DNA of 59,080 nucleotides from Acidobacteriota bacterium (GCA_040755335.1 JBFMAU010000001.1:1-59080); one strand, 5' to 3'. Counted from the stretch's first letter, positions 30,607-57,066 are shown. Translations and numbers: made by a program. Notes: generated by a model from the letters alone, not told the origin.

Positions 30607-30651
30607 GTTTTTCCTTTCCTCGTAGAGCTTGCGCTCCGTTAAATTAATCGA

Positions 30652-32217: not shown

Positions 32218-32330
32218 GGAAATCCTCTCCGGTATCGGGTTTGAGTTCGTGAGCAGCGCGAATTTTCATCCGCGCTATTCGTGAATACCTCTTTCAAGCC
32301 GCATCGGGTTACTTATTTCAGGAAAAATTT

Positions 32331-32406
32331 TTTGGAGTGGCGGCGACCTGTCGCAGCTTTTCTTCTGCGTAAGACCAAAGCGGGGACAAGTCCCCGCACT
32401 CCAAAG
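32331..32406. repeat. TTTGGAGTG...CACTCCAAA palindromic element, family B (copy 1)
   Basis: TTTGGAGTGGCGGCGACCTGTCGCAGC ... GCGGGGACAAGTCCCCGCACTCCAAA. Each arm is itself a small hairpin. Confidence 0.85.
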
Positions 32407-32436
32407 ACGTTCGACTTTGATCCGCACTATCTCCAC

Positions 32437-33315: not shown

Positions 33316-33336
33316 TTCATTCCACCTCCCAAAAAA

Positions 33337-33410
33337 TGTGCAGTAGGCTCGAAGCCTGCTGTTTATCTCATTTTCATGCTTTCAGGCAAACAGGCTACGA
33401 TTCCGCGTTG
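33337..33410 (-). repeat. Hairpin element, family E (copy 2)
   Basis: GTAGGCTCGAAGCCTGCTGTTTA - TCTCATTTTCATGCTTTCAGG - CAAACAGGCTAC. It lies between the TBDR stop and the 33315 start. Confidence 0.8.
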
Positions 33411-33453
33411 CCGGAGCGACGCAGAAACACTGCATCGCTCCGGGTTGAAGATA

Positions 33454-36400
33454 CTAGAAGCTGACCCTTGCGGCGAACTGAAAAGCGCGCGGGCCGCCTG
33501 ACCCGAAGACCGGATTGACGCGGCCTGTGGGCTGACCGAAGTTGAAGTTGGGATTGCGACCCGGCGTGCCTGCCGGATTGGCTGCGCTCGGCGGAGTGGG
33601 CCGAATGTATGCGTCGAGCGTGCCGCTGAAACCCGTCAGGTTCGCGATGTTGAAGGCGTTGAAAACTTCTCCGATCAAAGAGAGCCTGACTTTTTCGCCT
33701 ATGCGCACAACTCTAGTCAAACGGATATCGTGCGACATGAAACTGTCATCATGGGCGAACTTATCCGGCAACACGATGAACGGGAAGGGAGTGCCAAGGG
33801 CATCGCGGTTCGCGCGATTTCGGATGTCGCGGACGAAGGTATCGGGCGGAGCCGGGAAATTGGCATTGTACTCGGCCACCAGCCGACGAATATCATCGGC
33901 ATCCAGATCATAGCCGAATGAACTGACATCGGTTCCGGGAAGCCGGAAAACGAACGTGCCGTCGCCCTCAGGATCGAGAATGCCCAGAGTGACCGAGGTC
34001 GGAGTCCCTGTTCGCATATCGACTATCGTCGAAACTTGCCAGTCGTTGAGCAAGCCTCGCAAGAATCTGTTATCGCCCTTGTATTTCGGCAACTCCCAGA
34101 TGGCATTGCCCGTGAAGCGATGTCTCGGATTGCCGCCGCTTATGCCGTGACCTTCGTGAAGGCCGTCGTTGTTGGAGATGCCTGTAAAGGTCGTGTAGCG
34201 CGAAAGCGCGTAAGACCCGCCGAGCGTGAATCCATTGGAGAAGCGTTTATCGACCTTGAGTTGCAAAGCGGTGTAGCGCGAGAGTATTCCCGGCAATCCG
34301 TATTGAATCGGGCCGAGCGAGCATTGCGCCCTTGGGTCGAAACGATTGGCCGCAGTGCAGGCCGGTATTACGGGGTTGCGAATGGGAACAGCCGTACCGC
34401 TGGGGAGAATGGTCTGATAGCTGAATCTGTTCCATCGATTCAGGTCGGGGAAGAACAACTCGAAGGCTCCGAATCCGACCCCTCGTCGCTGGACGAAATC
34501 AGCCGAAACCGAGAGGTTGCGTATGATCTCGCGTTGCAGGCCGACATTGAACTGGAGGGTGTAGGGCGTGCGCGAAGAGTCGCTGTTGTAGATCGCATCC
34601 AGATTTCCCGCGCCCGCGACGGTCTTGGAAATATTGACGCCGCGCAGCGAGAGGTCTTGCCCGTTGAATTGCGAGTAGAAAGCCTCTAGCTGCGCTCTCG
34701 CGTTGGCCAGGTAGTTGAGCATATCGAGCAGGCTGAAGGCAGTCGGAGTGGTGAAGCTCAAACATCCTGCCGCGGGATTGGCCGCCACGCTGCCGCAGCG
34801 CGTCAGGCTTTCCGGGTTCTGCAAGGCCGCGCCCGATAGAGACTGCAATCCGTTGCCTGCCGGACCGAAGAGTATCCGCTGGTTGAGATTGAAGAATCCC
34901 ACATTGGGCGAGATGTGGTGAAGTGACGCGCTGGCGCGGATGACCGTCTTTTCATCTTTGCCCACCGCCCACGCAAAACCAACTGCCGGATCGAAGTTCC
35001 CGTACTGCTGTTTCGGCCCTTCGAGATTATCTCCGAGCAGTGGCCGCAGGTAATCGGTGTTAAGGTCGATGTCGTGGTAGAAGACGTTGCTCTCATACGA
35101 CCAGCCCAGTCCGTAGTTGAGTGTGAAGCCCTTGAAGATCTGCCACGCATCCTGAGCGTAGAAGCGGACGTGGTGGTTGCTCGTGGCTTTTTCGTAGTTA
35201 TAGGGCGCTGGCTGTCCGGGGTCTCCTATTCCGATTGTGAGCGTGCCGTTGAGCGGGAGTTGCAGGAGATCCGTAAACGGCACAGGCTGACCTGTCGGGA
35301 CTTTCAGGCTCGCGGGGAGCGCGGCAAACAGCGCGGCATTGGACGCAACCTGAGTCGGACTGAAGGCCGAAAATCCTCCTGCCGCCTGACGGTTCCATGT
35401 GCCATGCCCGTAGGTGTATTCATAGTTGCCGCCGAAGCGAATGCGATGCGCGCCCTTCGTCCAGTTCACGTTGTCCGTCCACTGGAAAGTGCGCGGGTGA
35501 CGATCCTGCGAGACATTGACGTTGGTTCCTACCTGAAGCCCGCCGAAAAAGGAAATGAGCGGGCCGCCCAGTCCGAAGCACAGGCGAGGATCGCCACTCA
35601 CACGTTCGCATTCCTCCTCGGTGGGAGGACGAAGCCGGCTTCTGAAATAGGAATAGGAGAAGCGGAAATCGTTCACCAGTCGGGGAGTGAACACGCTGGT
35701 TAGGCCCATCTGTGTCTGATAGGAGAAATTGCTCGAAGCGATCCACGTAGACTCCAGATTGGTGCCGGAGATGCTGTCATTGGAGTCTATATTGCTTCGG
35801 AGAAAAGCCGTGTGCTTATCGTTGACCGTGTAATCGACGCGCACGCCGAACAGATCGCCTTCCAGCGGTTGCTGCGCGATGTGATTGAATCCGAACAGCA
35901 CCGGATCGGTGAAATTGATCGTGCGCGCTCCAACCTGATCATTGCGTTCGTAGTTGGTGAAGAAGAAGAGCCGGTCTTTTTTGATCGGCCCGCCGAAAGT
36001 GGCTCCATACTGCTTGCGGACGAAGAAAGGATCCTGTAATCGCTCGCAAAGCGCCGGATTGGCGCACAGCGGATTGAAGGCAGTCGGGTCATCGGGACGG
36101 CGGAAGCCCGGAAACGCGGATATGTTGTGGTCGCGATAAAAGAAGAAACCGCTCCCATGAAATTCATTGCCGCCCGTCCGCGATACGATGTTGACCGCCC
36201 CGGCTGAAACCGTTCCCGACGAGAGATCGAACCCGAGAGTGCTGATCTGAAATTCCTGCACCGTCTCGGCGGAAAAGTTCTGCGATGTGCCACCGGTTAT
36301 CCGGTCATTGACCCTCGCTCCATCGACCGATATGACGGTCATCTGCTGAGGAGCGCCGCCGACTGAAATCTGGAAAAAGTTGTTCGGATTCCCGGCGCCG

Positions 36401-36927
36401 GAATTCGGGTTGTAAGTCACGTTGACGCCGGGTTCGAGCAAAGCGATAGACAAAAAGCTCCGCCCGTTGAGAGGAAGATTTTCGACTCGCTCTCGATTGA
36501 TGACCCCTCCGACCACAGTATCGGTGGTGTTGATGATCGGAGCATCAGGCGTCACATCGACTACTTCGCTGGTCGTGCCGACCTCCATAGAGAAATCGCT
36601 CGAAGCTGTGTTGCCGACTTCGACGGACACGGTTTGGGTTTGAGTCTTGAACCCGTCGGCTTCGGCTTTGACCTCATAAGCGCCAGGCAATAGGTTCTCG
36701 AATACGAAGTTTCCTTCGCTCCCGGCCTTGAGTTTTCTCAAAGCGCCGGTCGCTTTGTTGGTAGCCGTTATATTGGCGCTGGTGACTACGGCATCGTTTT
36801 GATCCTTCACCATGCCTTTGATAGCTCCGGTCGCATTTTGAGCCAGCGCCGAAGTTCCCATGCTCATCAGCAATACGGACAAGGCAAGGGCGACTGCGCG
36901 CTGCAGGTAGTTGTGCTTGGACTGCAT
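33454..36927 (-). CDS. TonB-dependent outer-membrane receptor with an N-terminal CarboxypepD_reg domain
   Basis: ATG at 36927 with an AAAGGAGG SD and signal peptide ...MSMGTSALA. GAIKGMVKDQNDAVVTSANITATNKATG...GNFVFENLLPGAYEVK is the CarboxypepD_reg domain. A plug-like region (NGRSFLSIALLEPGV) follows. The barrel ends in the terminal AARVSF (aromatic C-terminus). Confidence 0.88.
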   Translation of the reverse strand: MQSKHNYLQRAVALALSVLLMSMGTSALAQNATGAIKGMVKDQNDAVVTSANITATNKATGALRKLKAGSEGNFVFENLLPGAYEVKAEADGFKTQTQTVSVEVGNTASSDFSMEVGTTSEVVDVTPDAPIINTTDTVVGGVINRERVENLPLNGRSFLSIALLEPGVNVTYNPNSGAGNPNNFFQISVGGAPQQMTVISVDGARVNDRITGGTSQNFSAETVQEFQISTLGFDLSSGTVSAGAVNIVSRTGGNEFHGSGFFFYRDHNISAFPGFRRPDDPTAFNPLCANPALCERLQDPFFVRKQYGATFGGPIKKDRLFFFTNYERNDQVGARTINFTDPVLFGFNHIAQQPLEGDLFGVRVDYTVNDKHTAFLRSNIDSNDSISGTNLESTWIASSNFSYQTQMGLTSVFTPRLVNDFRFSYSYFRSRLRPPTEEECERVSGDPRLCFGLGGPLISFFGGLQVGTNVNVSQDRHPRTFQWTDNVNWTKGAHRIRFGGNYEYTYGHGTWNRQAAGGFSAFSPTQVASNAALFAALPASLKVPTGQPVPFTDLLQLPLNGTLTIGIGDPGQPAPYNYEKATSNHHVRFYAQDAWQIFKGFTLNYGLGWSYESNVFYHDIDLNTDYLRPLLGDNLEGPKQQYGNFDPAVGFAWAVGKDEKTVIRASASLHHISPNVGFFNLNQRILFGPAGNGLQSLSGAALQNPESLTRCGSVAANPAAGCLSFTTPTAFSLLDMLNYLANARAQLEAFYSQFNGQDLSLRGVNISKTVAGAGNLDAIYNSDSSRTPYTLQFNVGLQREIIRNLSVSADFVQRRGVGFGAFELFFPDLNRWNRFSYQTILPSGTAVPIRNPVIPACTAANRFDPRAQCSLGPIQYGLPGILSRYTALQLKVDKRFSNGFTLGGSYALSRYTTFTGISNNDGLHEGHGISGGNPRHRFTGNAIWELPKYKGDNRFLRGLLNDWQVSTIVDMRTGTPTSVTLGILDPEGDGTFVFRLPGTDVSSFGYDLDADDIRRLVAEYNANFPAPPDTFVRDIRNRANRDALGTPFPFIVLPDKFAHDDSFMSHDIRLTRVVRIGEKVRLSLIGEVFNAFNIANLTGFSGTLDAYIRPTPPSAANPAGTPGRNPNFNFGQPTGRVNPVFGSGGPRAFQFAARVSF

Positions 36928-37551
36928 ACACTTTCCTCCTTTTGGCTGCACCATTGGAGAATGATGCGGTGATGTTTGTAGGGCAGGCACGGGCCTGCTC
37001 GCAAACCTACCGAGAGAGGGTGAGCGGAATGATCCTTCCTCTCCATCGAATGGAGGCGAAGCAGTGTGTGAGTGTGTATGCTCCGGTCTCCATCATCCCA
37101 CCCAGGCTGCACATCGAACACGGTCGCTCACTCAGTTTGGTTATAAGTAGAGCGAAAACTGAATCAGAGCGCGCAAATTAGTACAGTATGCGAGCGGAAG
37201 AAATGTGACGGAAACTTCGAAACTGCCATCGAAGCCTTTCTAAGCCAGCACTCTATGCGGATGGTGTTAGTTGTGTCAGAAACAAGACCGGAAAATGTCA
37301 AAGCGAATTTGATGACGAACAAAATCGGATCGCGCAATCTGGAAATCGCGGTTGTCGGATTCGATCCACCACCAATTTCCAGGCAGCGCAACGGGAAGAT
37401 AGTTTCTTCTCGCCGCTTCGATAATCCTCAATGCGCCCGGTATGATCGATGCCATCATTATCCCCAACGGCTTCGAAGCGGGCGCAATCGGATATCGTCA
37501 GCGGAGCCGGATTCTAACATACCTACCGACCGGTCGGCAATACACTTGACC

Positions 37552-37585
37552 TAAAAAATCCGCGGCTGATCTTCTCAGCCGCGGA
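37552..37585 (-). terminator. Rho-independent terminator after the Mo-hydroxylase genes
   Basis: On the minus strand: TCCGCGGCTGA-gaaga-TCAGCCGCGGA followed by TTTTTT. It lies 24 nt downstream of the stop at 37609. Confidence 0.8.
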
Positions 37586-37608
37586 CTGCGCGTTGTTTCG
37601 CGACTCGA

Positions 37609-39837
37609 TCACACGAGCTTATGCTTTCGGAGCGGCAACTCTCTGATGCGCTTCCCCGAAGCGGCGAATACGGCGTTGCAGATAGCGGGCGGAATGGGAG
37701 GCACTCCCGGCTCGCCCACCCCGGCGGGCGGCGCGTCGCTCGAAACTATATGCACGCGCGTCTCAAGGGGAGCCTCGTCGATTCGCGCCACACGATAATC
37801 GTGAAAGTTGGACTGTTGTATCTCTCCTGCGGCAGCCGTGATCTCGCCCATCAGCGCAATGCTTGCTCCAAAGACCGCCGCCCCCTCGAACTGCGCCCTC
37901 ACGCGATCAGGATTGATCACCCGTCCGGCATCTACAGCCACATCGACGCGCGGTATGCGAATCTTCCCCGTCGAATCGATTTCGACCTCGGCCACCACGG
38001 CGACATAAGTCAGAAAACTGTAATGCGCGGCTACGCCGAGCGCGCGCCCTTTCGCAGCTTTCTTCTTAGCCCAACCCGATTCTCTTGCCGCTATTTCGAT
38101 CACGTTGCGCAAGCGCCCCGTCTCAAGCGGATACTTTTCCGCCAGCCTTCCGCGCGCGGCCACATCGACACGTCGAGGCTGACCAACAAGATCGAGCAGA
38201 TACTCCACTCTGTCGCGCCCCGAAAGATGCGCCAGTTCATCGACGAAAGAATGAATGGCGAAGGCGTGCTGGATGTTGGCCACAGAGCGCAGCCATCCTA
38301 TGCGCACGTGATGGCGGGCCGGCCCATTCTCCGCCCTATGGTTAGGGATATCGAACGGTAGGTTAGTCCACCCCATTCCTAATTCGCCTCCGCTGGCCGA
38401 AGCCGTCGCAGGATTGAACGTCGACATCATCGATGGAAACGCGCACCGCTGAAGCCAGGCAGTCGGGCGGCCCTTTTCATCGAGAGCCGCTTTCATATAC
38501 ATGGCCGAAACCGTGTGATAATAATCGAAGCGAATATCGTCTTCGCGCGTCCACGTTACCTTTACCGGTTTGCCTACAGTCTTCGATAGCAGCGCCGCTT
38601 CCGCGACATAATCAGGTTTGGACTTGCGCCCGAATCCTCCGCCTAAAAGAGTGACATGGCACTCGACATTTTTCTTGTCTATGCCGAGCGCGGCGGCAAC
38701 CGTGTCCTGCACGGCCTGCGGATTCTGAGTGGCGGCATAGATCAACGCTTTGCCATCTTTGAAGTGAGCAACAGCCGCGGGCGGTTCCATAGGCGCGTGC
38801 GCAAGATGAGGAACATAGTATTCGGCCTCGTGCGTCTTGCCTCCCTTTGCGAACTCCGCGTCCACATCGCCCACATTGCGCGCGGCTCTTTGCGGCTTGC
38901 GGACGGTCTCAATCAACTGTTGTTTGTAGCTCGCTGAATCATAGCTGGCATTCTCACCCGGTTCCCATTCGACCTTGAGACGTTCGCGGCCCTGCATCGC
39001 AGACCATGTGTTAGAGGCGATGACGGCCACGCCGCCCAGAGCCTTGAATCCATGCGGAGGAGTAAATCCTTCGATCACTACCGTCCGCTCGACGCCCGGC
39101 ACTTTGCGCGTTTCCTGATCGTCGAAACTTTTCATCCGCCCGCCAAGCACAGGCGACCGCTCAATCGAGGCATAGACCATCCCCGCCATCTGCGCATCAA
39201 TGCCGAATATGCCTCTTCCTGAGCATAAATCTTCGCGGTCGACTATCGGCACGTCTTTGCCTATGTAGCGATACTGGTCTTTGGATTTGAAACTCAACTC
39301 TTCTCTACGGGGCGCGGTCTGCTGCGCCGCAAGCTGCGCGAGTTCTCCATAACCAAGTTTTCGCCCGCTGCCCGCATGCACGACCACGTGATTCTGCGCT
39401 TTGCATTCTGCCATCGGCACGCCCCATTTTGCCGCCGCCGCTCTTTCGAGCATCAATCGGGCCGCGGCTCCCGCTTCTCGCATAGCGTCGTAAAAATCTC
39501 GTATCGAGCATGAGCCGTCCGTGTTTTGCGAGCCGTATTTGGCATCGCCTATGGCCTGCTCGACCCGGACTCGCTTCCAGTCCGCGTCTAACTCTTCGGC
39601 GACGATGGTCGGCAGGACTGATCTTATGCCCGTTCCCATCTCCGAACGATGAGCCACTATTATCACAGTGCCGTCAGTCTCCACTCCGAGATAAACGCTC
39701 GGATGCCACGCGGCTTTATCGATGTCGATAGCGGTCATCGCTTCGACGGGAAGGACTCGCGCGGCCAGCACAAAAGCCGAGGCAGAGAACATGCTGCCGA
39801 GAAAGGCGCGACGATTTATGACTTCGACTCTATTCAT
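37609..39837 (-). CDS. Molybdopterin-binding large subunit of an IorB / aldehyde-oxidase-type hydroxylase, Tat-exported
   Basis: The ATG at 39837 overlaps the upstream stop (ATGA). Tat motif [19 protein letters not shown]. The sequence has the length and motifs of the isoquinoline 1-oxidoreductase beta / membrane aldehyde dehydrogenase large subunit family. Confidence 0.85.
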
Positions 39838-40295
39838 TTCTTCACCTCCGCTGCCAGTTTGATCGCCTGTCTTATTCGCTGATAGGTTCCACACCGACAG
39901 ATGTTGCCGCGCATCGCCGCGTCTATGTCAGAGTCCGTCGGTTTGGGTTTTTGACGAAGCAGCGCGGCGGCCTGCATGATCTGTCCGCTCTGACAATAGC
40001 CGCACTGCGAGACGTTGACCTCAATCCATGCCTGCTGCAACGGATGGCTTCGGTCGGCGGAGAGACCTTCGATAGTGATGATCTTTTTGCCGACGGCGCT
40101 TGAAACCGGCGTGACGCATGAGCGGACGGCCTGACCGTTTATATGAACGGTGCAGGCTCCGCACTGAGCCATGCCGCAGCCGAACTTTGTGCCTGTAAGA
40201 CCAAGTGTGTCGCGCAGCACCCACAGCAGAGGCATGTCGGGGCTGACTTCGACCGATTGTTCCTTTCCGTTGACGTTGATTTTGATGGCAGTCAT
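39834..40295 (-). CDS. (2Fe-2S)-binding small subunit (IorA-like)
   Basis: 153 aa with [11 protein letters not shown] and [10 protein letters not shown]...CRCGTY cluster motifs. Confidence 0.9.
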
Positions 40296-40445
40296 TCGCG
40301 TCCTCCTTGATAAAAATATTTCAGATCGCCGTTTATGAATCGCCCGATTTCAAGACTTCCGATGCAGTCGGGTTTTGCGGGCGGGAAGGCTAATGGCTTT
40401 CGAGGCTCTTCACATCGCCTTTCAGGCATGACAGCGCGAGGCGAC

Positions 40446-40524
40446 TTCACCGCAGAGACGCGGAGACGCAGAGGTTGCGCAGAGAAAACTCTGCGAGGTC
40501 TCTGCGCCTCTGTGTCTCTGCGGT
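40446..40524. repeat. CGCAGAG/CTCTGCG palindromic REP-like element, family A (copy 2)
   Basis: TTCACCGCAGAGACGCGGAGACGCAGAGGTTGCGCAGAG-aaaa-CTCTGCGAGGTCTCTGCGCCTCTGTGTCTCTGCGGT. Confidence 0.85.
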
Positions 40525-40711
40525 TTATAGCCCACGGCTGTTTATACATTCGAAGCTTCCTGTAGAATCCACAAAGAGGCATCAGCAAAACTGTTCTCTT
40601 CGAGCTTTCCTCGCGCAGCCATCGGCTTTCGCGTTTTTGCCGCGTAGGTGTGAATGGTATAACGGATGGTGTGCAATCGTCAGTCGTACTTTTCAAAAGT
40701 TGATCAGTTCT

Positions 40712-42778
40712 TCACGGCAAGCGCAGCGCGATTAGCTGAGGCGTATTGGTCGCCACCGTCAGCGCGATGTATTGCTTGCCGCCAAGCATATAAGTCATCG
40801 GCGTGCTTATCGCGCTTGCGGGCAGAGAGACCCACGCAACGGCTTTGCCTGTCGCCTTGTCGTAAGCCACAAGCTTAGGCCCTTCGCCGTCTGATTCCGT
40901 CACCGCTCCGTCCATAGCCTGAATCAAAAGCGTCTTGGTCACGAGCGGCCCTCTCGCTCCGCCTCCGCCCAGTGGAGGCAACTTCACGCCCTTGAGCGCA
41001 GGGTGATTGCGAATGCGCGATGCTCCAATACCTATGGGCGTCATCCAGACGTGTTCGCCTTTGTTCAAATCAATGGCAGTCATTCGCGTGTACGGCGGTT
41101 TGAAGAGCGGCAACCCCTGCGGGCCGCGAGGCACTTCGCCCCCAACCTTGTGAGTGTAGCGCACAGTTCCGCCCTTTGCCGTGTCAGGAGTGTAAAAGTG
41201 AATGGTCGATGTTCCGTTGCGCGATGGAACATAGAGAATACCCGTCTCAGGATCGACGGCTGCTCCCTGCCAGTTCGCTCCGCCCGCTTCACCCGGTCTC
41301 GAAATCGTCCCCTTCGTGCCGCCTTCGATATCGAGCGAGGGCGGAGTGAACAACGGCCCTACGCGAAACTTCTTTAGCGTCTGCATAGCCTCTGCGCGAA
41401 GTTCAGGAGTGAAATCGATCAGATCGTCAACTGATACGCCCTGATATTCGAAAGGCGCGGGCCGCGTGGGAAAAGGCTGAGTCGGTGAGGCGCGCTCGCC
41501 AGGAACATCGGATGGGGGAACTGCGCGCTCTTCGATAGGCCAGACAGGTTTTCCCGTCACTCGATCAAAGACGAAACAGAAACCCTGCTTGGTCACTTGC
41601 GCGACCGCTTTGATGCGCTTTCCATCTACGGTGATATCGACGAGATTCGGCGCAGCAGGATTGTCATAATCCCAAAGCCCGTGATGAACCGTCTGAAAAT
41701 GCCAGACGCGACGGCCCGTCTCCACATCGAGGCAGATGAGGCTTTCGGCGAAGAGATTGTTTCCCAGTCGATGCCCGCCGTAAAAATCATTCGTCGGCGT
41801 CCCCGTTGGCAGATAAACATATCCAAGCTCATCATCCGCGCTCATCATCGACCAGACATTCGTGTTGCCCGTGTATCGCCACGAATCCTGCTCCCACGTC
41901 TCGACGCCGAATTCGCCTTCGCGCGGGACGGTGTGAAAAATCCATTTCAGTTTGCCTGTCACGACATCGAACGCCTGCACATCACCGGGCGGAGCCTCTT
42001 TCGTTATGCGGCGGTCTGAAATGGCGGAACCTACGATGACCGTGTTGCGACACACAACGGGCGGAGAGGTCACGGAATAAGTGAGCGCGTTGAGGTAGTC
42101 GCGATCTTTGCGTGAGGCGCGCGGAATATGTTTCATCAGATCGACGCGCCCTTCTTCCCCGAAGTCCTTACAGGGCCTTCCGGTCTTCGCATCGACTGCG
42201 ATCAGGTAGCCGTCGCCCGTTCCCCAGAGGATTCTCGCCTGCCTGCCGTCGCTCCAGTAAGCCGCCCCCCGATGATTCCACTGAAAGCTCATCGTGGGCG
42301 TTCCCGTCTCATAGCTTTTTGGATTGTAGACCCAGACGGTTTCGCCCGTAGCCGCATCAACGCCTACGGCCTGAGACAGAGGAGTAACGAGATAAAGCAT
42401 TCCGCCGACCATCAGGGGAGTGGCTTTGAGCGCATCGTTCCACGGAGGGCGTTTTTCTCGCCATCGAGCCGGATTATCTTTTTGAAGGTCTTCGAATATG
42501 TTGTCTGCTTTCGTCCACCATTCGCCGCCGGAAACATTTTTGCTCAAGGTTTCATCGACCGTCTTCCACGCCCATGCGATTTGCAGCTTTGAAAAGTTGT
42601 CGCGGTTGATCTGATCGAGAGGAGAGTATTTCGCGCTGGTGTTATCTCCGCCGTAAGCGGGCCACTCGCCCGTTGGTTTGCCGTTCTCGGCAAGGCTCGA
42701 AATACCGGAGAGAGCAAGCGCGAGGCAACCAAGCGCAGCCCATTGACAGATTCGGCGAAAGGTCGTTCGATGATTCAT
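40712..42778 (-). CDS. Soluble (signal-peptide) PQQ-dependent dehydrogenase of the glucose/quinate/shikimate family
   Basis: Start at codon 11 ([30 protein letters not shown]). Motifs [13 protein letters not shown] and [17 protein letters not shown] (the mGDH-type signature), plus repeated beta-propeller W-motifs. It lacks the N-terminal 5-TM anchor of membrane GDH. Confidence 0.85.
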
Positions 42779-42828
42779 CTTGCAGCGTCCGGCAATTCGG
42801 TTCCTCACTCACGCCCTCCATCTCAGGT

Positions 42829-43263
42829 TCACTTACTTGGTTGTTTAGGGCCGAGGCTTCGAAGGAAGTTGATCACATGCCACATCTGTTTTTCCGTGAG
42901 GCGATCCTTGTAGCTTTCCATGTCGGCGCTCGTTCCGTCGCGTATGACGACGAATATCTCGCCGTCGCTCGATCCGTGATCCCACACTTCATCGACGAGA
43001 TTTGAGGGCGTCCCTCCCGCAAGCGCCATCCCCCCGTCTCCCTTTGCCTGCGGGCCGTGACACGAAGCGCAATGTCGCAGATAAATTTTGCGGCCCTCTT
43101 CAATCGAAGCTGCGTCGACAGGAACAGGGTTTTTGATCTTCTGCGCCTCCGGGTGACGATGCGGCTCGACGGGGTGCGATTGCTGCCCCGCAATCACCCC
43201 GGCCATCGCGAAAACACTCAACACCATAATCAACCAGCGCCGCATCACGTTCCTCCTATTCAT
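42829..43263 (-). CDS. Exported class I c-type cytochrome
   Basis: Signal peptide, CASCHG heme motif, downstream Met ([10 protein letters not shown]). Confidence 0.85.
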
Positions 43264-43717
43264 CAGATACGTCGAAATTCTCGATCAGATATTCCGCCTC
43301 CCTCTCTCTCAGATGCACGAACACTTCATGCACGAGATTGACCGCCTTGTTCACTCCGTAAGCCCATTGATTATTTTTTATCCTGAGAGCGAGAGAAACC
43401 CGTCCGCCTCGATTATTGCAAACGATCTCGGCGCGCTTCGCGTCGACGCGACGATGCGGGGGCAACTCTTCGTCGTATCGCTGCCGCAAAAATTTTTTCA
43501 AATCCCGGTACATCGCCGAGCGCGCCGCGACATTCGGCAGAAGGTTTTTGAATCTCAACTCCCGCTTTTCAGCGTCAACAACGAACTCAACCGGACGCGG
43601 CGTCAGCCAGACGAAAGAAAAAACTCCCGTCCTGATCTCGCTCAGTCCGCGAAACACTCCCCGGTCTGCATAAACCTGAAGCGCGTCTCTTACGATCTTC
43701 AAAGATTTCTTTGCCAT
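43256..43717 (-). CDS. Hypothetical protein (no signal peptide, no recognisable domain)
   Basis: 153-aa ORF with protein-like composition. It overlaps the cytochrome c start by 8 nt. Confidence 0.55.
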
Positions 43718-43729
43718 CGTGATTAACCT

Positions 43730-43830
43730 GGGAGCGCACGCATCTTGCGTGCTGGGCCTGCGAAATTGAATCTATAGAAAGCCCTGAAATCCTGACTCCG
43801 CAAGCAAGCACGCTGGAAGCGTGCGCCCCC
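43730..43830 (-). repeat. ~100-bp palindromic-ended dispersed element, family C (copy 2, inverted relative to copy 1)
   Basis: Ends GGGAGCGCACGC ... GCGTGCGCCCCC. The core AGAAAGCCCTGAAATCCTGACTCCGCAAGCAAGC is the reverse complement of the copy-1 core. Confidence 0.85.
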
Positions 43831-43839
43831 AGAGACGAA

Positions 43840-45780
43840 TCAGTGATAATAAGACATGCATCCCGGCTCGGTCTTTCCGAGAAACCCCGGTGGATTTTCG
43901 CGCAGCCAGAATTCTTTCTTCGCCTGACAATTTATCACCGAAGGCCGACTTTCCCTGACCGCGATTTGATAACACCTTTCGAGCGCAGGTCGAAAATCCT
44001 CAGCCCTCGTGACGTATTCGCCATGCGCGCCGAGAGCTTCGCCGACTTTATCGTAGCGGACGTTTTCCTGAAACAGGTGCATGCTCAACGTGACCGGATT
44101 CGCTCGATTGCCGTTCCACGTTCCCCATGCGTTGTTGTTGTAAACGATCACTATCACAGGCAATCGATACTTCGAGAGTGTCTCCATCTCCATAGCCGTA
44201 TATCCGAATCCGGCATCGCCCGTCACGCACACTATGGGATGACCCTGATATGGTTTCTGCACGCTGATCCCATGTCGAACCGCAGCCGCCACTCCTATCG
44301 AATATCCCACATCAGGCCCGATGGCTCCGTACTGATACGCGCCGTTCATGATCTGTCCCGGTCGATATCCGCGAAGCCATCGCCTCACGTAACGAGCTAT
44401 CCCATATCCGCCTGATACGACGGTCGTCTGCTCTTTTGGAATCTTTCCGCGATAGAGGAAATCGCCCAACTCTTTTGCTATCACTGCCGGATGAACAGCA
44501 TCCGTGTAGCCGAGTCCTTGTTTGTAAATCACATCGAGTTCGTCCTCGAATTTCTTTCGCGCCGCCGCTATCTCTGCAATCCATGCATCATGCTTCATCG
44601 CGGGCATCTCGCCAGAAAGGGCTTCCAGAGCCGCGCGCTCGCAACTCACGATTCCGATATCGATGGGCAGATTGCGCCCTATGTCTTCCGCCTCGGGGTC
44701 TATGCGAATGTATTTGGCGTCAGGCCCGAAAGCGAATTCGCCAATGGTCGGCATGCAGTATTGACCGACGAGCAGAACCACATCCGCGCTTGCAAGCGCA
44801 GAGGGCGCGGCATTGGCCGACAGTGGAGAAGCGTCGGAGAATTGTCCTTTCATCGCGCCGGATTCGACGACAGGTATCTGCGCTTTTTCCGCCAGACTCT
44901 TCAATGCATCCCACGCGCGACTGTAAAAGACTCCGTTGCTCGAAACGATCATAGGTCGCTCGGCCTGCTTGAGCATCTCGACTGCCGCTCGAATGTCTTT
45001 CGGAGCGGGGTGAGGCTTCGCTTCCGTTCGATACCTCGACTTGTCGTAGTAATAATTCAGATCAGCCGCCGTCTTGAACTGCGCGCGATAGACCTCACTC
45101 GGAAAATCTATGTGAACCGGACGCGGCACGCCCGACCTCAATTGCCGGAATGCGTAAGCGGTGTACTCGGAAATGCGCGAGGGGATGATGAGCCGTTTGC
45201 CATACTTTTTCAATCCTTCTGTGGCGGGTTGTTGATACTGAAGCTGAATCCCCGATTCGGTGTCTTCCTGTTGAATCGACATGTTCGAAGCGAGAACGAG
45301 AAGAGGAGTGCGCGCGGCGTTGGCAGCGGCGATAGCGCATATCATATCCGAGAATCCCGGCCCTTCGGTTCCTGATGTTGCGGCTATCTCTCCGGTCACG
45401 CGGATGAAAGCGTCTGCGGCGTGACACATCGCTCCTTCGTGTCTGCCCGAGTAAGCGGGTATGCCTTCCTGCGCAATGGCGTTTATGACGTTGTAATTTC
45501 CCGGACAGCAAAATAACGCGGCCAGACCTTCTTCTTTGCACATGCGGGCGAAGACCTGCGCGCCGGTCATCGGAAAATTGGCTTTCACGGGCGCGGCTTT
45601 TGCTGCGAGCGCGAACTCATCGGGAATCTTTATGGGTCGCGCTGCGTCCGATGAGTCAGAAGCCGAAGCTTTGCCTGCGCCAAGAGAGGCCGCCGCGCCT
45701 GCGGTGATGGCTGCTTTGGCGATGAAGTTTCTTCTTGAGAGATTCGCCTCGCTCTGTTTCGAACCTTTAGACTTTCCCAT
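43840..45780 (-). CDS. Thiamine-diphosphate-dependent enzyme (acetolactate synthase / benzoylformate decarboxylase superfamily) carrying a twin-arginine signal peptide
   Basis: N-terminus ...[28 protein letters not shown] (S-R-R-x-F-I-K Tat motif + h-region + AxA). [13 protein letters not shown] carries the catalytic Glu. The ThDP motif is [33 protein letters not shown]. Confidence 0.85.
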
Positions 45781-45847
45781 AAAGCTCCCCCATGAAAAAT
45801 GAAGACGCCGGATGCTGGATCGGATTTTGTTTCAGTGTACGAAACAA

Positions 45848-45918
45848 ATTTGGAGTGCGGTGACTTGTCACCGCTTTTCATTCAAACAAAAGCTGCGACA
45901 AGTCGCAGCACTCCAAAA
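45848..45918. repeat. TTTGGAGTG...CACTCCAAA palindromic element, family B (copy 2)
   Basis: TTTGGAGTGCGGTGACTTGTCACCGC ... GCTGCGACAAGTCGCAGCACTCCAAAA. Confidence 0.85.
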
Positions 45919-45961
45919 ACTCTCCTTTCTCATCCCGCGCATTCAATCGAATACCTCTGGC

Positions 45962-46513
45962 TTATGACGCAGGTTTCGCATCGACCTTTTGAAACCACGG
46001 ATTGCCGAAATTCGTCCACGGCCCGCCGTCGACCGATATTTGAACCTGCAAGCGATAGTAGGCCGGAGACAGCATCAGCGTCTTGCCCTTGAGTTTTATC
46101 GTCCTGCCATTTTTTTTGATAGGCGCGCTCTCCCAGTGAATGGTGTAATACCCGCCGAGGTCGCCTCCAATAGGGCCGGTCTTTGTCACCGTCACGCCGA
46201 AGAGTCCGGTCTCCTGACGTGTGACGATCTTTTCTTTTTCGTTATAAGATATCTTCGCGCGTCCCTTGAAAGCTCCCACTGGCCCTGTGCCTTCTATGTC
46301 GCTTTCATAAGTTGCCGCTTGAATTTTCCTGTATGTTTCTTTGCCTTTGATCTTGCCCGCAGGGCCGAGAGGCGATTCAGGCACGTTCCATTCGAATGTC
46401 CACGCGCCGAGAAAATAATCCATATCGGGCGGAGGCATAGGATCGTTCGGGTCGGTCGGACGACTCTGGGGTTGTTGCGATAAAACGAGGGCTAGTAAGA
46501 GTGCGATTATCAT
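45962..46513 (-). CDS. Small exported protein of unknown function (possibly DUF1579-like)
   Basis: ATG at 46513 ([14 protein letters not shown]). [13 protein letters not shown] resembles the DUF1579 N-terminal motif, but the match is weak. Confidence 0.55.
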
Positions 46514-46520
46514 TGTCTTT

Positions 46521-46581
46521 CGTCCGTTGTCCGTTGTCTGTTGTCCGTTGTAACAAACGACTGACAACTGACAACGGACAA
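46521..46581. repeat. Hairpin built from heptamer tandem repeats (TCCGTTG)x4 and their complement (CAACGGA/CAACTGA)
   Basis: CGTCCGTTGTCCGTTGTCTGTTGTCCGTTGT-aacaaacgac-TGACAACTGACAACGGACAA. Confidence 0.85.
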
Positions 46582-46588
46582 ATAACAG

Positions 46589-48034
46589 CTATTGCTTTTT
46601 AGCCACTTCTTTCGTCAGGTCTTTGCTATCGACGGTGTACTCGAACCACGGTATGAACATCTCGTCCCAACTCTGTTCGCTCCAGAAGACTTCCTTGTTG
46701 GGCGCGGGATTGTATCGATTTTTGATCGAGTTATCGTAGTGAGCGACGGCCACGAGTCGGCTGCCCGCGGGAATTTTCAACGGACGTTCAAGCTCATAAT
46801 GCAACTGCCAGTTGAAATCGAATCGAGGCACATCGAGGAGTATCTGCTGGCGACCGTCGGGCCAGATGAGCGTGTAGCGGACATCCTTGCCGCGCAGGTG
46901 CATGTGCGGAGCGAAGGCATAAAGTGTGATCGCCTCTTTGATCGTCACTTCGCCGCTTATCTCCCAGTTATCCGCGTTGGGCGGAATGTTGGGGATGCGG
47001 CCTCGCACCTTGACTTCCTTGCCGTTGACCATGCGGGTCTCGACGAGTTCCTTGCCGCCGATGAATATTCGGTCAGTCACTCCCTTGGTCAGCACTTCGT
47101 GGGTTACGCGAGTTTTCGAAAACCAGAGTCCGAGCATCGAGCGATCTTTTTCGGGGCGACCCGTGGGCTGATAGTGCATGTTGAATTGAAAATACATGCC
47201 GGGAAGCACTCGCTTGGCCGTTCCGGGGAAATGCCGCTCGAAGCCTTTGCCGGGAGCCTGTCCGACAAGCTTGAACGCGCCTGCGCGAGTGAAGGAATCC
47301 TGACTCTGAAAAACTTCGCGCGATCCGCCATCACGCGGCGCGGCTCCTTCGCTCAATCCCCCTGTCTCTCTGGCCGACCGATTATCAACCGGAGTCGCGG
47401 AGCCGTCTCTCACCGCGCGACCGTTGACGAGTTTGCTTCCTTCAGGCAATCGCACCACGTTGGCGATAGAGTGATGCACGACTGCTGAGTTTCCCGGACG
47501 CAACTCCACGGTTTCCACCCATCGCTCTTCAGTGAAGGGAACAGGCACATAGAAATTCTGCATGGGCAATTCGCCTTCGGCAGGCACTTCGAATTCTACG
47601 GGCATGGGTATGATCAAATCCGGCTCGCCGAACGTCCAACCGGGAGTGAATCGGGGCAGAGGCGGCAGATCGGAATCTCGCCCTTTCGGCGCTCCCGCAT
47701 CTACCCATGCGACTATGGTGTCGATTTCAGCTTGAGTGAGCCGCCGGTCGTTGTGGAACTTGAGAGTCGAGGTATGAGGATCGGCATACCACGGCGGCAT
47801 AGTGCGTTCAAGCACTTCTTCCTTTATGGCTTTGCTCCAAGGGCGCACTTCCGCGAAGGAGGTGAGCGGCATGGGAGCGACTTCGCCCGCGCGGTGACAG
47901 GTGGCGCACTTGTTGAAGATGATCGGCGCGACATCCTTTGCGAAAGTGGGCGCTGCGGGTTTGTCGGCGCTGCTTGTGTTTATGAAAGTCGCAGCAGCAG
48001 CAAAGGCGATAGCGGTCGTGAGCCAGCGTTTCAT
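46589..48034 (-). CDS. Exported heme-c domain fused to a PHM/DBH-like binuclear copper monooxygenase core (paralog 1)
   Basis: ATG at 48034 with a GGGAGGAG SD, followed by a signal peptide. [15 protein letters not shown] is the CxxCH heme motif. The copper ligand pattern is [18 protein letters not shown] and WDEMF, in the order and approximate spacing of the PHM CuH (HH, H) and CuM (HxH, M) sites. Confidence 0.7.
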
Positions 48035-48054
48035 CTCTCTCCTCCCTCTCAGAT

Positions 48055-48125
48055 GTGGCGCAAGTCGAGCTTGCGTGGCCCGAATTTTCACACCTTCAGC
48101 ATGCGCAATCTGACAGATTGCGCCA
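48055..48125 (-). repeat. Double-hairpin element, family D (copy 2)
   Basis: GTGGCGCAAGtcgagCTTGCG ... GAATTTTCACACCTTCAGC ... ATGCGCAATC-tgaca-GATTGCGCCA. It fills the spacer between the two monooxygenase genes. Confidence 0.85.
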
Positions 48126-48128
48126 CTG

Positions 48129-49427
48129 CTATTTGGAACCGGCTTTCGCGTTGAGCCGGAGGTCCTGTTTGTCGAGCGTATAATCGAGATAGCCGATCAT
48201 CATCTCCTCCCAGGTCTGCGGCCCCCACTCTACGAGCTTCGTCGGATCGGGATTGAATTTGTTCTTTGCCGAGTTATCGAAGTGCGCCACGCATTCCAAT
48301 CGACTGCCCTTAGGCGCGGCCACAGGCTCTTTGAAGAAATAAGTCTGTTGCCAGTTGAAGTCCCATCGCGGAACTGAAAGAAGCAGTTTCGATGCGCCGT
48401 CCGGGTAGACCAGCCGAAAGGAAAAATCCTTGCCTCGCATGTGCATGTGCGGATGCAGGCTGTCGATGTGACTGTCTTCCTTGAAGGTGAAAGAAGATTT
48501 CACCTCGTAATTCGGATCGCCGGGAGGGATGGCCAGAGAGCGTGCGAAAGCTCCCGCCGTGATGACGCGCTTCTCGACCGCCGCTCGCGAGAATATCAGC
48601 CCGACGCTTGAGCGGTCTGTGCCTGCGACGCCGTTTGTGGTGTAGTGAACCTGAAATACAAGCACGGAGCCTTTCTTGATGAGCTTGGCCTGACCGGGAT
48701 GCAGAATCAGAGGCGCTTCGCCCGGAGCCCAGCCCACGAGTCTGCCATCGGAATCGCCTGCTCGCGCGCCCTCTCCTCCACCCTGCTGGCGCGAGGCTGC
48801 CAGTCTTTCAGGCGTGATTTCTCCTGCTGGCGGCAACTGTCCCTGACCGGGATAGCGGACATCGACGATGATGTGATGGACGAGTTGGCGATTGCCCTGT
48901 CGAATCTCGGCAAACTGCACATACTTGTCTTCGGTGAAGTTGGTAGGCACGGCGAAATACTTATAAGGGATCACTCCTTCAGCCGGAACCGAGTATTCTT
49001 CGGTCATCGATAAAACCACATCGGGTTTGCCTATAGTCCATCCTTCGGTGAATTTGGGAAGAGGCGGAAGGTCGCGCGGGTCGCCTTCGATAGCGCCGCC
49101 GTTGACCCAGGCAGTGATCGTATCTATCTGCTTTTGCGATAAACGACAATCATTCGAAAATTCGGTATGCTGCTGGTCGGCAAACCAGGGGGGCATCCTT
49201 CGTTCGGCCACGACTTCGCGAATCGATTTAGCCCACGGGCGGACTTCCTTGTAGGTGACGAGCGACATAGGCGCTACTTCGCCCGCGCGGTGACAGGTGA
49301 TGCAGTTGTTATAGAGTATCGGCGCGACATCTTTGGTGAAAGTCATTCGTGTGTCGCTGCTGTTTGTCAGGCCGGTCGCCAGCAACACGCAAGCGAAAGC
49401 GCAGGCGAGGCCGAATAGTCGTTTCAT
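48129..49427 (-). CDS. Exported heme-c domain fused to a PHM/DBH-like copper monooxygenase core (paralog 2)
   Basis: Signal peptide, then [15 protein letters not shown]. Copper ligand pattern [23 protein letters not shown]. It is collinear with paralog 1. Confidence 0.7.
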
Positions 49428-56977: not shown

Positions 56978-57066
56978 TTTCACCGCAGAGGCGCAGAGGA
57001 CACAGAGGTTACGCAGAGATTTCTTCTCCGCGCTCACTCAGCGTTCTCTGCGCCTCTGCGGTGAAT
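56978..57066. repeat. CGCAGAG/CTCTGCG palindromic REP-like element, family A (copy 3)
   Basis: TTTCACCGCAGAGGCGCAGAGGACACAGAGGTTACGCAGAG ... TTCTCTGCGCCTCTGCGGTGAA. Confidence 0.85.

Follow-up and report, generated by a model that had tools for sequence, protein, structure and literature searches.

The window, a 59,080-nt stretch of DNA from an Acidobacteriota bacterium, carries nine co-directional genes on its minus strand (37609–49427), and our gene calls agree with the coordinates given in the original prediction, which had read this array as a possible periplasmic oxidation pathway. In minus-strand order, the genes and their accompanying elements are:

48129–49427, minus: Cu1, predicted Sec-exported protein with a heme-c motif (CxxCH) and a PHM/DBH-like two-copper core (Cu2_monoox_C, 20.1 bits)
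46589–48034, minus: Cu2, paralogue of Cu1 (~45% identity) with the same predicted architecture (Cu2_monoox_C, 27.6 bits)
45962–46513, minus: small exported DUF1579-like (calycin-type) protein, third gene after the Cu1–Cu2 pair
45831–45961, minus: nested REP-like hairpin pair in a spacer (−54 kcal/mol, z = −5.3)
43840–45780, minus: putative ThDP-dependent enzyme with Tat signal (TPP_enzyme_N, M and C domains; Tat motif SRRNFI)
43718–43839, minus: REP/MITE-like long hairpin that separates the ThDP gene from the gene of its partner (−66 kcal/mol, z = −8.7)
43256–43717, minus: 153-aa protein without signal peptide, partner gene of the ThDP enzyme
42829–43263, minus: predicted Sec-exported monoheme class I cytochrome c (Pfam Cytochrom_C, Cytochrome_CBB3)
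40712–42778, minus: putative soluble PQQ-type eight-bladed propeller dehydrogenase, 698-aa type (Pfam PQQ, 654 bits)
40296–40711, minus: 416-nt spacer with REP-like palindrome (−74.6 kcal/mol, z = −7.8)
39834–40295, minus: putative IorA-type 2Fe-2S small subunit without signal peptide (Pfam Fer2, Fer2_2)
37609–39837, minus: putative IorB-type molybdopterin hydroxylase large subunit with Tat signal (Pfam MoCoBD_1, MoCoBD_2)
37557–37587, minus: intrinsic terminator at the array end (13-bp stem with 8 G-C pairs, then a U run)

As had been proposed, the array ends at a strong terminator (37557–37587, folding z = −4.5), and its spacers are either short or occupied by REP-like elements, with a long, stable hairpin in every longer one. 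Folding z-scores range from −5.3 to −8.7 in the spacers 46514–46588, 45831–45961, 43718–43839 and 40420–40560, and a hairpin at 48100–48125 is weaker (z = −2.0). Elements of the spacers at 48100, 45849–45909, 43772–43830 and 40432–40458 have further copies in the window, the 43718–43839 hairpin has an inverted copy at 14927–14985, and no second copy of the 46527–46581 hairpin was found within the window. The spacer elements are strain-specific, since the spacer between the PQQ and Fe-S genes measures 416 nt here and only ~80 nt in a genome of the same genus (G001). Given this short spacer in G001 and the absence of a Pfam match, a 134-aa ORF at 40292–40696 was judged spurious.

One arm of the nested pair at 45831–45961 resembles a terminator, a hairpin at 45892–45909 followed by a T run on the minus strand. 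It lies between the gene of the small exported protein and the ThDP gene, corrects the original description in this point, and counts against assuming co-transcription of the triad and the trio described below. The array contains neither a transporter nor a regulator, in agreement with the original prediction; the genes flanking it also code for exported enzymes.

Two gene modules and their predicted products

The ThDP-dependent enzyme matches the Pfam domains TPP_enzyme_N, M and C with 82, 87 and 78 bits, compared with cut-offs of 27, 30 and 22. We looked for the cofactor-activating Glu and the Mg-ThDP motif GDG-X(24–27)-NN, both of which the window enzyme possesses; E115 (in RHEGAM) and G521-D522-A523-G524...N548-N549-N550 are invariant in 17 orthologues. 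The best matches in the PDB (E = 1e-46 to 1e-34) belong to the branch of 8VZJ, 7PT1 and 2AG0, which points to a distant relationship with the oxalyl-CoA decarboxylase / 2-hydroxyacyl-CoA lyase / benzaldehyde lyase branch. No curated NCBIfam cut-off is reached (206 bits compared with 587), and the enzyme was rejected as an equivalog of oxalyl-CoA decarboxylase or 2-hydroxyacyl-CoA lyase (201 bits compared with 557 for PRK09259, 162 compared with 600 for NF058623). Its export via the Tat pathway, as originally proposed, is predicted from an N-terminal S/T-R-R-x-F-L/I motif that precedes a hydrophobic stretch and is kept among orthologues: it reads SRRNFI in the window and recurs in 68 of 72 orthologue ORFs; in the other four, the start of the ORF is over-extended. 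Orthologues from three acidobacterial classes share 71–95% identity.

The adjoining 153-aa protein, which had been listed as an unknown, cytoplasmic-looking protein, is no bystander but the obligate partner of this enzyme. Its gene is present in 54 of the 58 ThDP loci with enough flank. Every homologue that we could locate, except for a stop-interrupted fragment (G002:C114), has a ThDP orthologue or the 54% paralogue no more than ~1 kb away, or else sits on a short contig together with other genes of the cluster. The protein has no Pfam or NCBIfam match. For the fold, we required an α-β-β-β-α-β-β-α, CesT/SycE-like arrangement superposable on solved chaperones. The best Foldseek matches of its AF2 model (pLDDT 94) are the class I type III secretion chaperones ExsC, Spa15, InvB and SycH, all of them weak (E = 2e-3 to 1e-2, TM 0.37–0.59 among the top 13 matches). 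Structures of TorD, DmsD and NapD are absent among the 50 matches listed, and membership in the TorD/DmsD or NapD families was rejected on this ground and for want of a sequence match. The protein is a candidate export or maturation chaperone of the ThDP enzyme; alternatively, it may be a co-exported subunit.

The gene for cytochrome c overlaps the 153-aa gene by 8 nt; of 57 loci with sufficient flank, 52 have it next to the ThDP pair. The three genes stand side by side in almost all relatives, do so once more in a paralogous copy with 54% identity, and constitute an inseparable trio. The paralogous trio is intact in all seven genomes that have it, with a copper gene adjoining in four. In Vicinamibacterales and other lineages, the trio occurs without copper genes, and can therefore work alone.

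The first three genes form a second inseparable module, a triad of Cu1, Cu2 and the DUF1579-like protein whose order is constant across relatives. Cu2, which likely starts at MKRWL, has an insertion of ~25 residues relative to Cu1. Of the two, only Cu2 (27.6 bits) exceeds the Pfam cut-off for Cu2_monoox_C (23 bits), with Cu1 (20.1 bits) below it; the N-terminal domain Cu2_monooxygen was undetected in both, and a profile search of PDB sequences did not find PHM. The CxxCH motif, M78, H184-H185, H261, H327-x-H329 and M409 are invariant in Cu1, with the same residues in Cu2, and the six residues H184, H185, H261, H327, H329 and M409 are invariant across 34 Cu1 and Cu2 sequences. At the level of sequence, this confirms the six-ligand pattern, with His-His and His as putative CuH and His-x-His and Met as putative CuM ligands. 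The AF2 model of Cu1 (pLDDT 78) matches human DBH (4zel, E = 8e-13) and PHM (3mll, 1phm; E = 2e-12, TM 0.64 normalised to the target, ~300 residues), and thereby confirms, as far as a model can, a PHM/DBH fold for the two-domain core. Of 18 orthologues of the small exported protein, 14 have a DUF1579 match, the best with E = 5e-7, and the window copy itself reaches only E = 0.043, pointing to a divergent member of this family.

Co-inheritance of the modules and the place of IorAB

In Blastocatellia, trio and triad share their history of gain, loss and duplication. Among 300 genomes of this class, 65 hold both the ThDP enzyme and Cu2, 7 only the former, 5 only the latter and 223 neither, a table whose significance is overstated, as the genomes are related and not independent. 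The Cu2 orthologues (74–94% identity) co-vary with the ThDP orthologue also within genera: of the 15 genomes in g14, trio and triad are present in the same 6, and the two agree within each of the likewise polymorphic genera g4, g5, g7, g20 and g34. On a shared contig, they are at most 13 kb apart in 35 of 36 genomes; the coupling also extends to 29 genomes that have them on separate contigs, and in G060 they are separated by 136 kb. A second, paralogous cluster in the source genome (C263) repeats the parts list with a calycin-like protein, a copper monooxygenase, a cytochrome c, a Tat-signal ThDP enzyme and a chaperone-like protein.

These data bear on the view that independent periplasmic enzymes have merely come together here, by chance or through regional clustering of genes for exported proteins. 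The REP-filled spacers, the order of the modules, which varies between genera, and the exported enzymes encoded on either side would suit it, but we consider it highly improbable in light of the co-occurrence across 300 genomes, the co-variation within genera, the repeated parts list and a linkage that persists despite rearrangement.

To these six genes, the PQQ dehydrogenase adds a near-obligate seventh, which takes one of two forms that exclude each other. The 698-aa type has orthologues (75% identity or more) exclusively in genomes with the ThDP gene, of which G019 has a fragment, and in other genera, a cytochrome-fused 620-aa PQQ protein fills this place. Of the 30 genomes sampled that carry a ThDP orthologue or a remnant of one, among them the source genome G000, 7 have the 698-aa and 20 the 620-aa type, and none has both. 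PF01011 covers residues 49–681 of the window protein (654 bits), which scores 402 bits for TIGR03074 (cut-off 833). Neither pqqC nor pqqE was found above cut-off in G000, which is 98% complete, and the pqqC control matched none of 14 control genomes; the protein would accordingly need a scavenged cofactor, or may be inactive.

The last two genes join by an ATGA overlap, the Fe-S gene being always directly upstream of the Mo gene. No CoxM-type gene for an FAD subunit adjoins them, and their domains point to an IorAB-type two-subunit molybdenum hydroxylase; the Tat signal that had been noted on the Mo subunit is present as NRRAFL, from which export is predicted. This enzyme is a neighbouring module rather than part of the core, and co-varies with neither trio nor triad. 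Its orthologues occur without a ThDP gene in G003, G005, G014, G020, G021, G035 and G056, and at least seven genomes have them with neither ThDP nor copper genes. Fe-S and Mo genes are nearby in just 1 of 32 well-flanked loci, and among the genera sampled, they lie within ~13 kb of ThDP or copper genes only in g1, g3 and g16. By synteny, IorAB belongs with a PQQ paralogue and the esterase locus that follows it downstream in the window: four genomes of two other genera have the order PQQ paralogue, Fe-S, Mo, α/β-hydrolase, carboxylesterase, in which the PQQ gene is a 56–64% paralogue of that in the window and not its orthologue. The succession of PQQ enzyme and IorAB behind the proposed oxidation of alcohol to aldehyde to acid is a conserved gene order in other genera, but there it involves the paralogue.

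This evidence also weighs on the original idea of one operon and a single periplasmic pathway, in which hydroxylation, alcohol oxidation, C–C cleavage and aldehyde oxidation by IorAB would all be linked. In its favour, the nine genes run in one direction up to a single strong terminator, their order is the same in two genomes of the genus, G004 clusters the same nine with the copper triad again first, IorAB is within ~13 kb of the cluster in g16, and elsewhere, too, a PQQ gene and IorAB are conserved in this succession. We nevertheless find a single nine-gene operon quite unlikely, given the independent occurrence of IorAB, its rarity at these loci and its synteny with the PQQ paralogue and esterase genes, while the long spacer of 416 nt and the terminator-like hairpin within the array speak against one tight operon. 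Rather than one pathway of nine genes, the array is a composite. The functional link that had been drawn from proximity, with conservation in relatives as its proposed check, is backed in this way for the seven genes of Cu1, Cu2, the small protein, the ThDP enzyme, the 153-aa protein, cytochrome c and the PQQ dehydrogenase, which co-vary as a conserved set in soil Acidobacteriota; it is not supported for the Fe-S and Mo genes, which do not.

Proposed system and its relation to known systems

We put a probability of roughly two in three on the reading that the array consists of a conserved seven-gene system for oxidation outside the cytoplasm and, next to it, an enzyme unrelated to that system. 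The seven-gene set, which is not described in the literature we searched and is uncharacterised so far, appears to send to the periplasm a ThDP enzyme and its cytochrome, along with two copper hydroxylases and a PQQ dehydrogenase. For the order of chemical steps, we infer the following. The ThDP enzyme would be loaded with its cofactor and folded in the cytoplasm, where the chaperone-fold partner may hold or proofread it before Tat export. The copper monooxygenases would take electrons via their own heme domains and hydroxylate a C–H bond in the same substrate class, the PQQ dehydrogenase would oxidize the resulting alcohol, and these two steps would make the carbonyl that the ThDP enzyme attacks. 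In the periplasm, the latter would cleave or decarboxylate a 2-oxo or α-hydroxy-carbonyl compound, and its carbanion-enamine intermediate would give two electrons to cytochrome c. Electrons from the two dehydrogenating steps may return via cytochrome c to the monooxygenases. IorAB, not a constant member, may oxidize aldehydes. Counted against this reading are the size of the copper family (20–30 copies per genome, most of them far from any ThDP gene), the trio without copper genes, the weak chaperone fold match and the pqqC and pqqE genes that were not found in G000.

The trio, possibly with the PQQ enzyme, might instead stand outside the copper enzymes' substrate pathway and oxidize a cheap periplasmic carbonyl, its cytochrome c delivering two electrons per monooxygenase turnover. 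The heme c domain of the copper enzymes, the cytochrome gene encoded with the ThDP enzyme and the co-variation of trio and triad would fit such a role; neither ascorbate nor NAD(P)H is known from the periplasm, and in fungi, cellobiose dehydrogenase or PQQ pyranose dehydrogenase supplies lytic polysaccharide monooxygenases (LPMOs) in an analogous manner. Still, none of the 20–30 further copper paralogues in each genome has a donor dedicated to it in this way, other classes have the trio without copper genes, and both the orthologue-to-orthologue co-variation and the repeat in the paralogous cluster better fit a shared substrate, which makes a pure electron supply unlikely.

The seven-gene system shares features with several known ones. 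Like the trio, torCAD-type operons keep together the genes of a cofactor-loaded twin-arginine enzyme, a dedicated cytochrome c and a small protein without signal. The trio differs in its cofactor, ThDP instead of molybdopterin, in its 153-aa partner, which has no sequence match to TorD, DmsD or NapD and a predicted fold like type III secretion chaperones, and in its electron flow, presumably from enzyme to cytochrome. With the oxalyl-CoA decarboxylase / 2-hydroxyacyl-CoA lyase / benzaldehyde lyase branch, the ThDP enzyme shares the three-domain fold, the catalytic Glu and GDG...NN. However, all characterised members of that branch reside in the cytoplasm or in peroxisomes, and the substrates of the closest ones are CoA thioesters, which one would not expect to find in the periplasm; the window enzyme has a Tat signal as well as cytochrome and chaperone-like partners.

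Periplasmic systems of PQQ alcohol dehydrogenase, cytochrome c550 and aldehyde dehydrogenase, such as the Pseudomonas ped/exa clusters and the membrane-bound ADH/ALDH of acetic acid bacteria, likewise combine a PQQ propeller dehydrogenase with a small cytochrome c, and a Mo/Fe-S enzyme of the aldehyde oxidase type follows the PQQ gene here and in four other genomes. By contrast, the window PQQ protein reaches no curated subfamily cut-off, the search of G000 gave neither pqqC nor pqqE, the constant partner of cytochrome c is the ThDP enzyme and not the PQQ enzyme, and IorAB is inconstant. A genetic or physical link between a copper oxygenase outside the cytoplasm and a dehydrogenase and cytochrome that could pass electrons back to it is also known from LPMOs, paired with cellobiose dehydrogenase or with PQQ pyranose dehydrogenase, and from particulate methane monooxygenase (pMMO), paired with methanol dehydrogenase and cytochrome cL; yet the copper enzyme families are unrelated, and none of these systems includes a ThDP enzyme. 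Finally, Cu1 and Cu2 resemble PHM and DBH in their predicted two-domain β-sandwich fold and their copper ligand pattern (HH, H, HxH, M), but they are bacterial and very divergent (15–19% identity), and an N-terminal c-type heme domain would replace the supply by ascorbate or cytochrome b561.

Genes and intergenic elements of the array

The window is one entire 59-kb contig from a 98%-complete source genome (G000) of 7.85 Mb in 808 contigs. Open reading frame listing together with Pfam and NCBIfam scans confirms the nine co-directional minus-strand genes at 37609-49427 on which the original prediction was built.

Genes of the array at 37609-49427, in minus-strand order
Cu1 and Cu2, minus: paralogous proteins, each with CxxCH and Cu2_monoox_C
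Small exported protein, minus: third gene of the array
ThDP enzyme, minus: Tat motif SRRNFI
153-aa protein, minus: without signal peptide and without family match
Monoheme cytochrome c, minus: 8-nt overlap with the 153-aa gene
PQQ propeller, minus: 654 bits
2Fe-2S subunit (Fe-S), minus: upstream partner of the MoCoBD gene
MoCoBD subunit (Mo), minus: Tat signal; ATGA-coupled to the 2Fe-2S gene

The strong terminator predicted at the end of the array is canonical (37557-37587), and the REP elements expected in its spacers are likewise present, with a long stable hairpin in every longer spacer. Folding z-scores range from -5.3 to -8.7 in four array spacers, and the hairpin in the short Cu1-Cu2 spacer reaches only -2.0. 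Four of the five spacer elements have further copies elsewhere in the window, and the PQQ-to-Fe-S spacer measures 416 nt here versus ~80 nt in a genome of the same genus (G001); these hairpin elements are strain-specific insertions. A 134-aa open reading frame at 40292-40696 was not accepted as a gene, since it matches no family and falls in the PQQ-to-Fe-S spacer, which contains a REP-like hairpin and shrinks to ~80 nt in G001. More generally, several REP/MITE-like families are scattered across the intergenic regions of the contig, and their presence varies between genomes of the genus.

Copies of REP/MITE-like palindromes in the window
23968-23993, 25724-25749, 48100-48125
14927-14985, 43772-43830
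32340-32405, 45849-45909
29272-29344, 40432-40520, 56979-57065

A terminator-like hairpin with a T run lies at 45892-45909, between the small gene and the ThDP gene. The sigma-54 motif TGGCAC-N5-TTGCW (up to 2 mismatches) has no match in the relevant spacers and 18 in the whole window, below the chance expectation of 25. A minus-strand sigma-70 scan found no promoter-like site upstream of the Cu1, ThDP or Fe-S gene, an uninformative result, as acidobacterial promoters may differ.

Linkage and co-occurrence of the array genes

Across 20 relatives and 80 named loci from a collection of species-representative genomes, the genes for the ThDP enzyme, the 153-aa protein and cytochrome c are nearly always neighbours, in that order (the trio). 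Among loci with enough flank, the 153-aa gene is found in 54 of 58 and the cytochrome gene in 52 of 57, and the adjacency spans Blastocatellia, Vicinamibacterales and a single Terriglobia record. The Cu1, Cu2 and small genes invariably form a triad, in Blastocatellia mostly at a distance of 2-13 kb from the trio. Which module comes first varies: the triad in the window, the trio in most genera.

Array genes at 32 loci with at least 8 kb on either side of the ThDP gene
Cu1: 18/32
Cu2 and small gene: 13/32
Any PQQ-type gene: 19/32
Fe-S and Mo genes: 1/32

ThDP and Cu2 orthologues in 300 Blastocatellia genomes, drawn evenly
Both: 65/300
ThDP only: 7/300
Cu2 only: 5/300
Neither: 223/300

Because related genomes are not independent, the Fisher value of the 300-genome table is not a probability, and the meaningful evidence of co-occurrence is repeated agreement within genera. 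Both modules occur in the same 6 of 15 genomes of genus g14, and ThDP and Cu2 also agree within the polymorphic genera g4, g5, g7, g20 and g34. Completeness is below 90% in five of the seven ThDP-only genomes, and ThDP remnants are found in two of the five Cu2-only genomes. Co-occurrence persists where the modules lie on different contigs (29 genomes) and where they are 136 kb apart (G060). The genomes in which homologues of the 153-aa protein were found are those that carry a ThDP orthologue or the 54% paralogue, except G022 (none found). Leaving aside one stop-interrupted fragment (G002, contig C114), each homologue lies ~1 kb or less from the ThDP gene or paralogue, or else shares a short contig with further genes of the cluster.

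As a separate observation, three cluster genes appear broken in one genome (G036, contig C8, 499492-506741): the ThDP gene contains an in-frame TGA and is in pieces, the partner gene is split and Cu2 is truncated. These apparent interruptions could reflect joint decay of the system or indel errors; we set the case aside as evidence of coupling, since the 10-contig assembly may carry such errors.

The PQQ dehydrogenase comes in two forms. Orthologues of the 698-aa protein of the window (at least 75% identity) were found in only six other sampled genomes, from genera g1, g3, g10 and g18; all six hold the ThDP gene (a fragment in G019), and their PQQ gene is located within the cluster or next to it. 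Other genera have an unrelated 620-aa protein in this position, in which an N-terminal cytochrome c domain is fused to a PQQ-like propeller. Of the 30 sampled genomes that carry a ThDP orthologue or a remnant of one (G000 among them), the 698-aa type is present in 7, the 620-aa type in 20 and both in none; 3 genomes (84-94% complete) have neither. Such mutually exclusive forms are the pattern of non-orthologous displacement, which makes a PQQ-type dehydrogenase the seventh, near-obligate part of the set.

The two last genes of the array, the IorAB pair of Fe-S and Mo, behave differently, and the proposal that all nine genes form one pathway is not borne out: Mo orthologues are present across most of the family, including seven genomes without ThDP or Cu genes, and genera g1, g3 and g16 are the only ones with IorAB at ~13 kb or less from ThDP or Cu genes. 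In four genomes of g14 and g5, the gene order is PQQ paralogue (56%), Fe-S, Mo, alpha/beta-hydrolase and carboxylesterase, and the esterase genes are the ones found after IorAB in both the window and G001; by this synteny, IorAB belongs with the PQQ paralogue and the esterase locus. The predicted oxidation from alcohol via aldehyde to acid fits this separate module of PQQ paralogue and IorAB; IorAB is only a neighbour of the seven-gene set. Extended runs of same-strand genes for exported redox proteins are mosaics in these genomes, and a pathway should be proposed for them only after they have been divided according to conservation.

The adjoining region of the window, downstream of IorAB (29416-36990), carries alpha/beta-hydrolase, carboxylesterase and DUF3089 genes that in other genera (loci L129-L132) are syntenic with PQQ paralogue-Fe-S-Mo. 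A TonB-dependent-receptor-like gene there (33454-36990) has no match in the G001 stretch examined and looks like an addition in this strain.

A second cluster in G000, on contig C263 (locus L121), repeats much of the set.

Paralogous cluster on C263, 1652-9541, all genes on one strand
Sigma-54 activator: two GAF domains
Calycin-like exported protein: 235 aa
Heme-Cu monooxygenase paralogue
Cytochrome c
Tat-signal ThDP paralogue: 54% identity
Paralogue of the 153-aa protein: overlaps the ThDP stop codon

The paralogous trio is complete in all seven genomes examined, with a Cu gene alongside in four of them. Retention of the same protein combination after duplication is hard to explain without a shared function. 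The cluster includes a sigma-54 activator; the sigma-54 motif has no match on C263. On another contig of G000 (C292, locus L128, 4833-8111), a 647-aa PQQ dehydrogenase gene is directly followed by a heme-Cu monooxygenase paralogue, with a convergent DUF2911 gene downstream; this is a further instance of a PQQ gene adjoining a Cu monooxygenase gene.

Three other genes recur near the modules in relatives and are missing from the array of the window. An exported two-domain VOC/glyoxalase-family protein with the N-terminal motif FHHVHLNS stands beside ThDP or Cu modules in 25 copies at 24 loci (L044, L046, L050, L051, L071, L072, L101 and others), mostly on the strand opposite the ThDP gene; its best match in G000 is 43% identical (contig C138). 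The gene of an apparently cytoplasmic luciferase-like monooxygenase, with a 68% homologue on contig C633 of G000, lies between the ThDP and partner genes at ten loci (L058, L074, L079, L080, L084, L086, L093-L095 and L097) and upstream of ThDP in L055. An MFS transporter is linked at six loci.

Properties of the encoded proteins

All three domains of the ThDP enzyme are present, along with its catalytic Glu and GDG...NN motif. The protein scores below every curated family cut-off; the best matches among solved structures are oxalyl-CoA decarboxylase, 2-hydroxyacyl-CoA lyase and benzaldehyde lyase. It is unusually conserved, with 71-95% identity across classes. In related ThDP enzymes, a C-terminal tail covers the active site; here the tail, GCMSY(Y/N)H (43840-43860 in the window), is invariant across 17 orthologues from several genera.

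Its 153-aa partner matches no Pfam or NCBIfam family and nothing significant among PDB sequences. At 90% identity its family comprises at least 1400 clusters, and at 50% identity there are 389 representatives; every source name shown among the best 120 matches is 'hypothetical protein'. The model is confident (pLDDT 94), and in structure comparison class I type III secretion chaperones rank at the top; this weak match (E 2e-3, TM ~0.5) hints at a possible chaperone role.

The AlphaFold model of Cu1 (pLDDT 78) matches human dopamine beta-hydroxylase (DBH) and rat peptidylglycine alpha-hydroxylating monooxygenase (PHM) across the entire catalytic core (E ~1e-12, TM 0.64 normalised to target). 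The PHM match comes from the fold search only, as a profile search of PDB sequences with the Cu1/Cu2 alignment returned no PHM. All 34 Cu1/Cu2 sequences compared share the CxxCH motif, a candidate axial Met and the copper-ligand pattern HH/H/HxH/M without variation. Genomes of families f1 and f5 each give 20-30 matches to this heme-c-fused PHM-like family (28 in G000), and those of the other Blastocatellia families sampled give 0-2. The small protein, with no significant match among PDB sequences, is a divergent DUF1579 member.

At least seven PQQ-propeller genes are present in G000. Searches for pqqC and pqqE found nothing above curated cut-offs there, a result that does not show absence, as the pqqC control matched no control genome either; possibly the cell scavenges the cofactor, or the propellers carry none.

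Possible function and relation to known enzymes

Beyond the parts list, export signals, gene linkage, folds and ligand patterns established here, a mechanism can be proposed. The ThDP enzyme would fold and load its cofactor in the cytoplasm, escorted by the chaperone-like partner, and then be exported by Tat to cleave oxidatively or decarboxylate a carbonyl compound and hand the electrons to cytochrome c. In this enzyme class, one-electron acceptors are well established as oxidants of the ThDP-bound enamine. Both the copper monooxygenases and the PQQ dehydrogenase would act on the same substrate family: in the simplest version, they would install and then oxidise a hydroxyl next to a carbonyl, and the resulting acyloin, diketone or 2-oxo acid would be attacked by the ThDP enzyme. 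Electrons may go back to the monooxygenase heme domains.

Alternatively, the trio might serve only to supply electrons. Other classes have the trio by itself, and a ThDP gene is missing next to most copper paralogues. The coupling of trio and triad, specific at the level of orthologues, therefore favours a shared substrate pathway over pure electron supply and makes the latter the less favoured reading.

The shared pathway can be extended to a self-contained, redox-balanced periplasmic machine for C-C cleavage, which we consider improbable when taken as a whole. Here, the heme-fused PHM-like copper enzymes would hydroxylate an unactivated, alpha-carbonyl or alpha-amino C-H of an extracellular compound; one option would be hydroxylation of a glycine-type terminus with release of glyoxylate, which is PHM chemistry. 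The ThDP enzyme, as the first known periplasmic one, would oxidatively cleave the carbonyl product, and its two electrons would pass via the dedicated cytochrome c to the monooxygenase heme, so that the net requirement would be O2 only, without cytoplasmic reductant. The 153-aa protein would found a new Tat chaperone family on the type III secretion chaperone fold.

Parts of the cluster are found in Blastocatellia and further Acidobacteriota of soil; these bacteria are abundant, have for the most part not been cultured and are believed to process complex carbon in soil. Our literature searches covered ThDP enzymes that are periplasmic or exported by Tat, bacterial PHM homologues fused to heme, and periplasmic oxidation in Blastocatellia; they returned no account of a Tat-exported ThDP enzyme or of this cluster; the sole paper with all searched terms, on Nitrotoga (PMC6050957), is unrelated. 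Together, the list of seven genes, its repetition in the paralogous cluster and the interchangeability of the two PQQ forms offer a concrete and testable handle on the function of both the ThDP and the PHM/DBH-type families. A conserved Tat-exported ThDP enzyme with its own cytochrome c and chaperone-like partner would bring new cofactor chemistry to the periplasm, namely C-C cleavage and decarboxylation coupled to respiration; as far as we know, all characterised ThDP enzymes are intracellular. Likewise, we know of no characterised bacterial PHM/DBH-type monooxygenase, and the heme-c-fused family described here is tied to defined partner enzymes.
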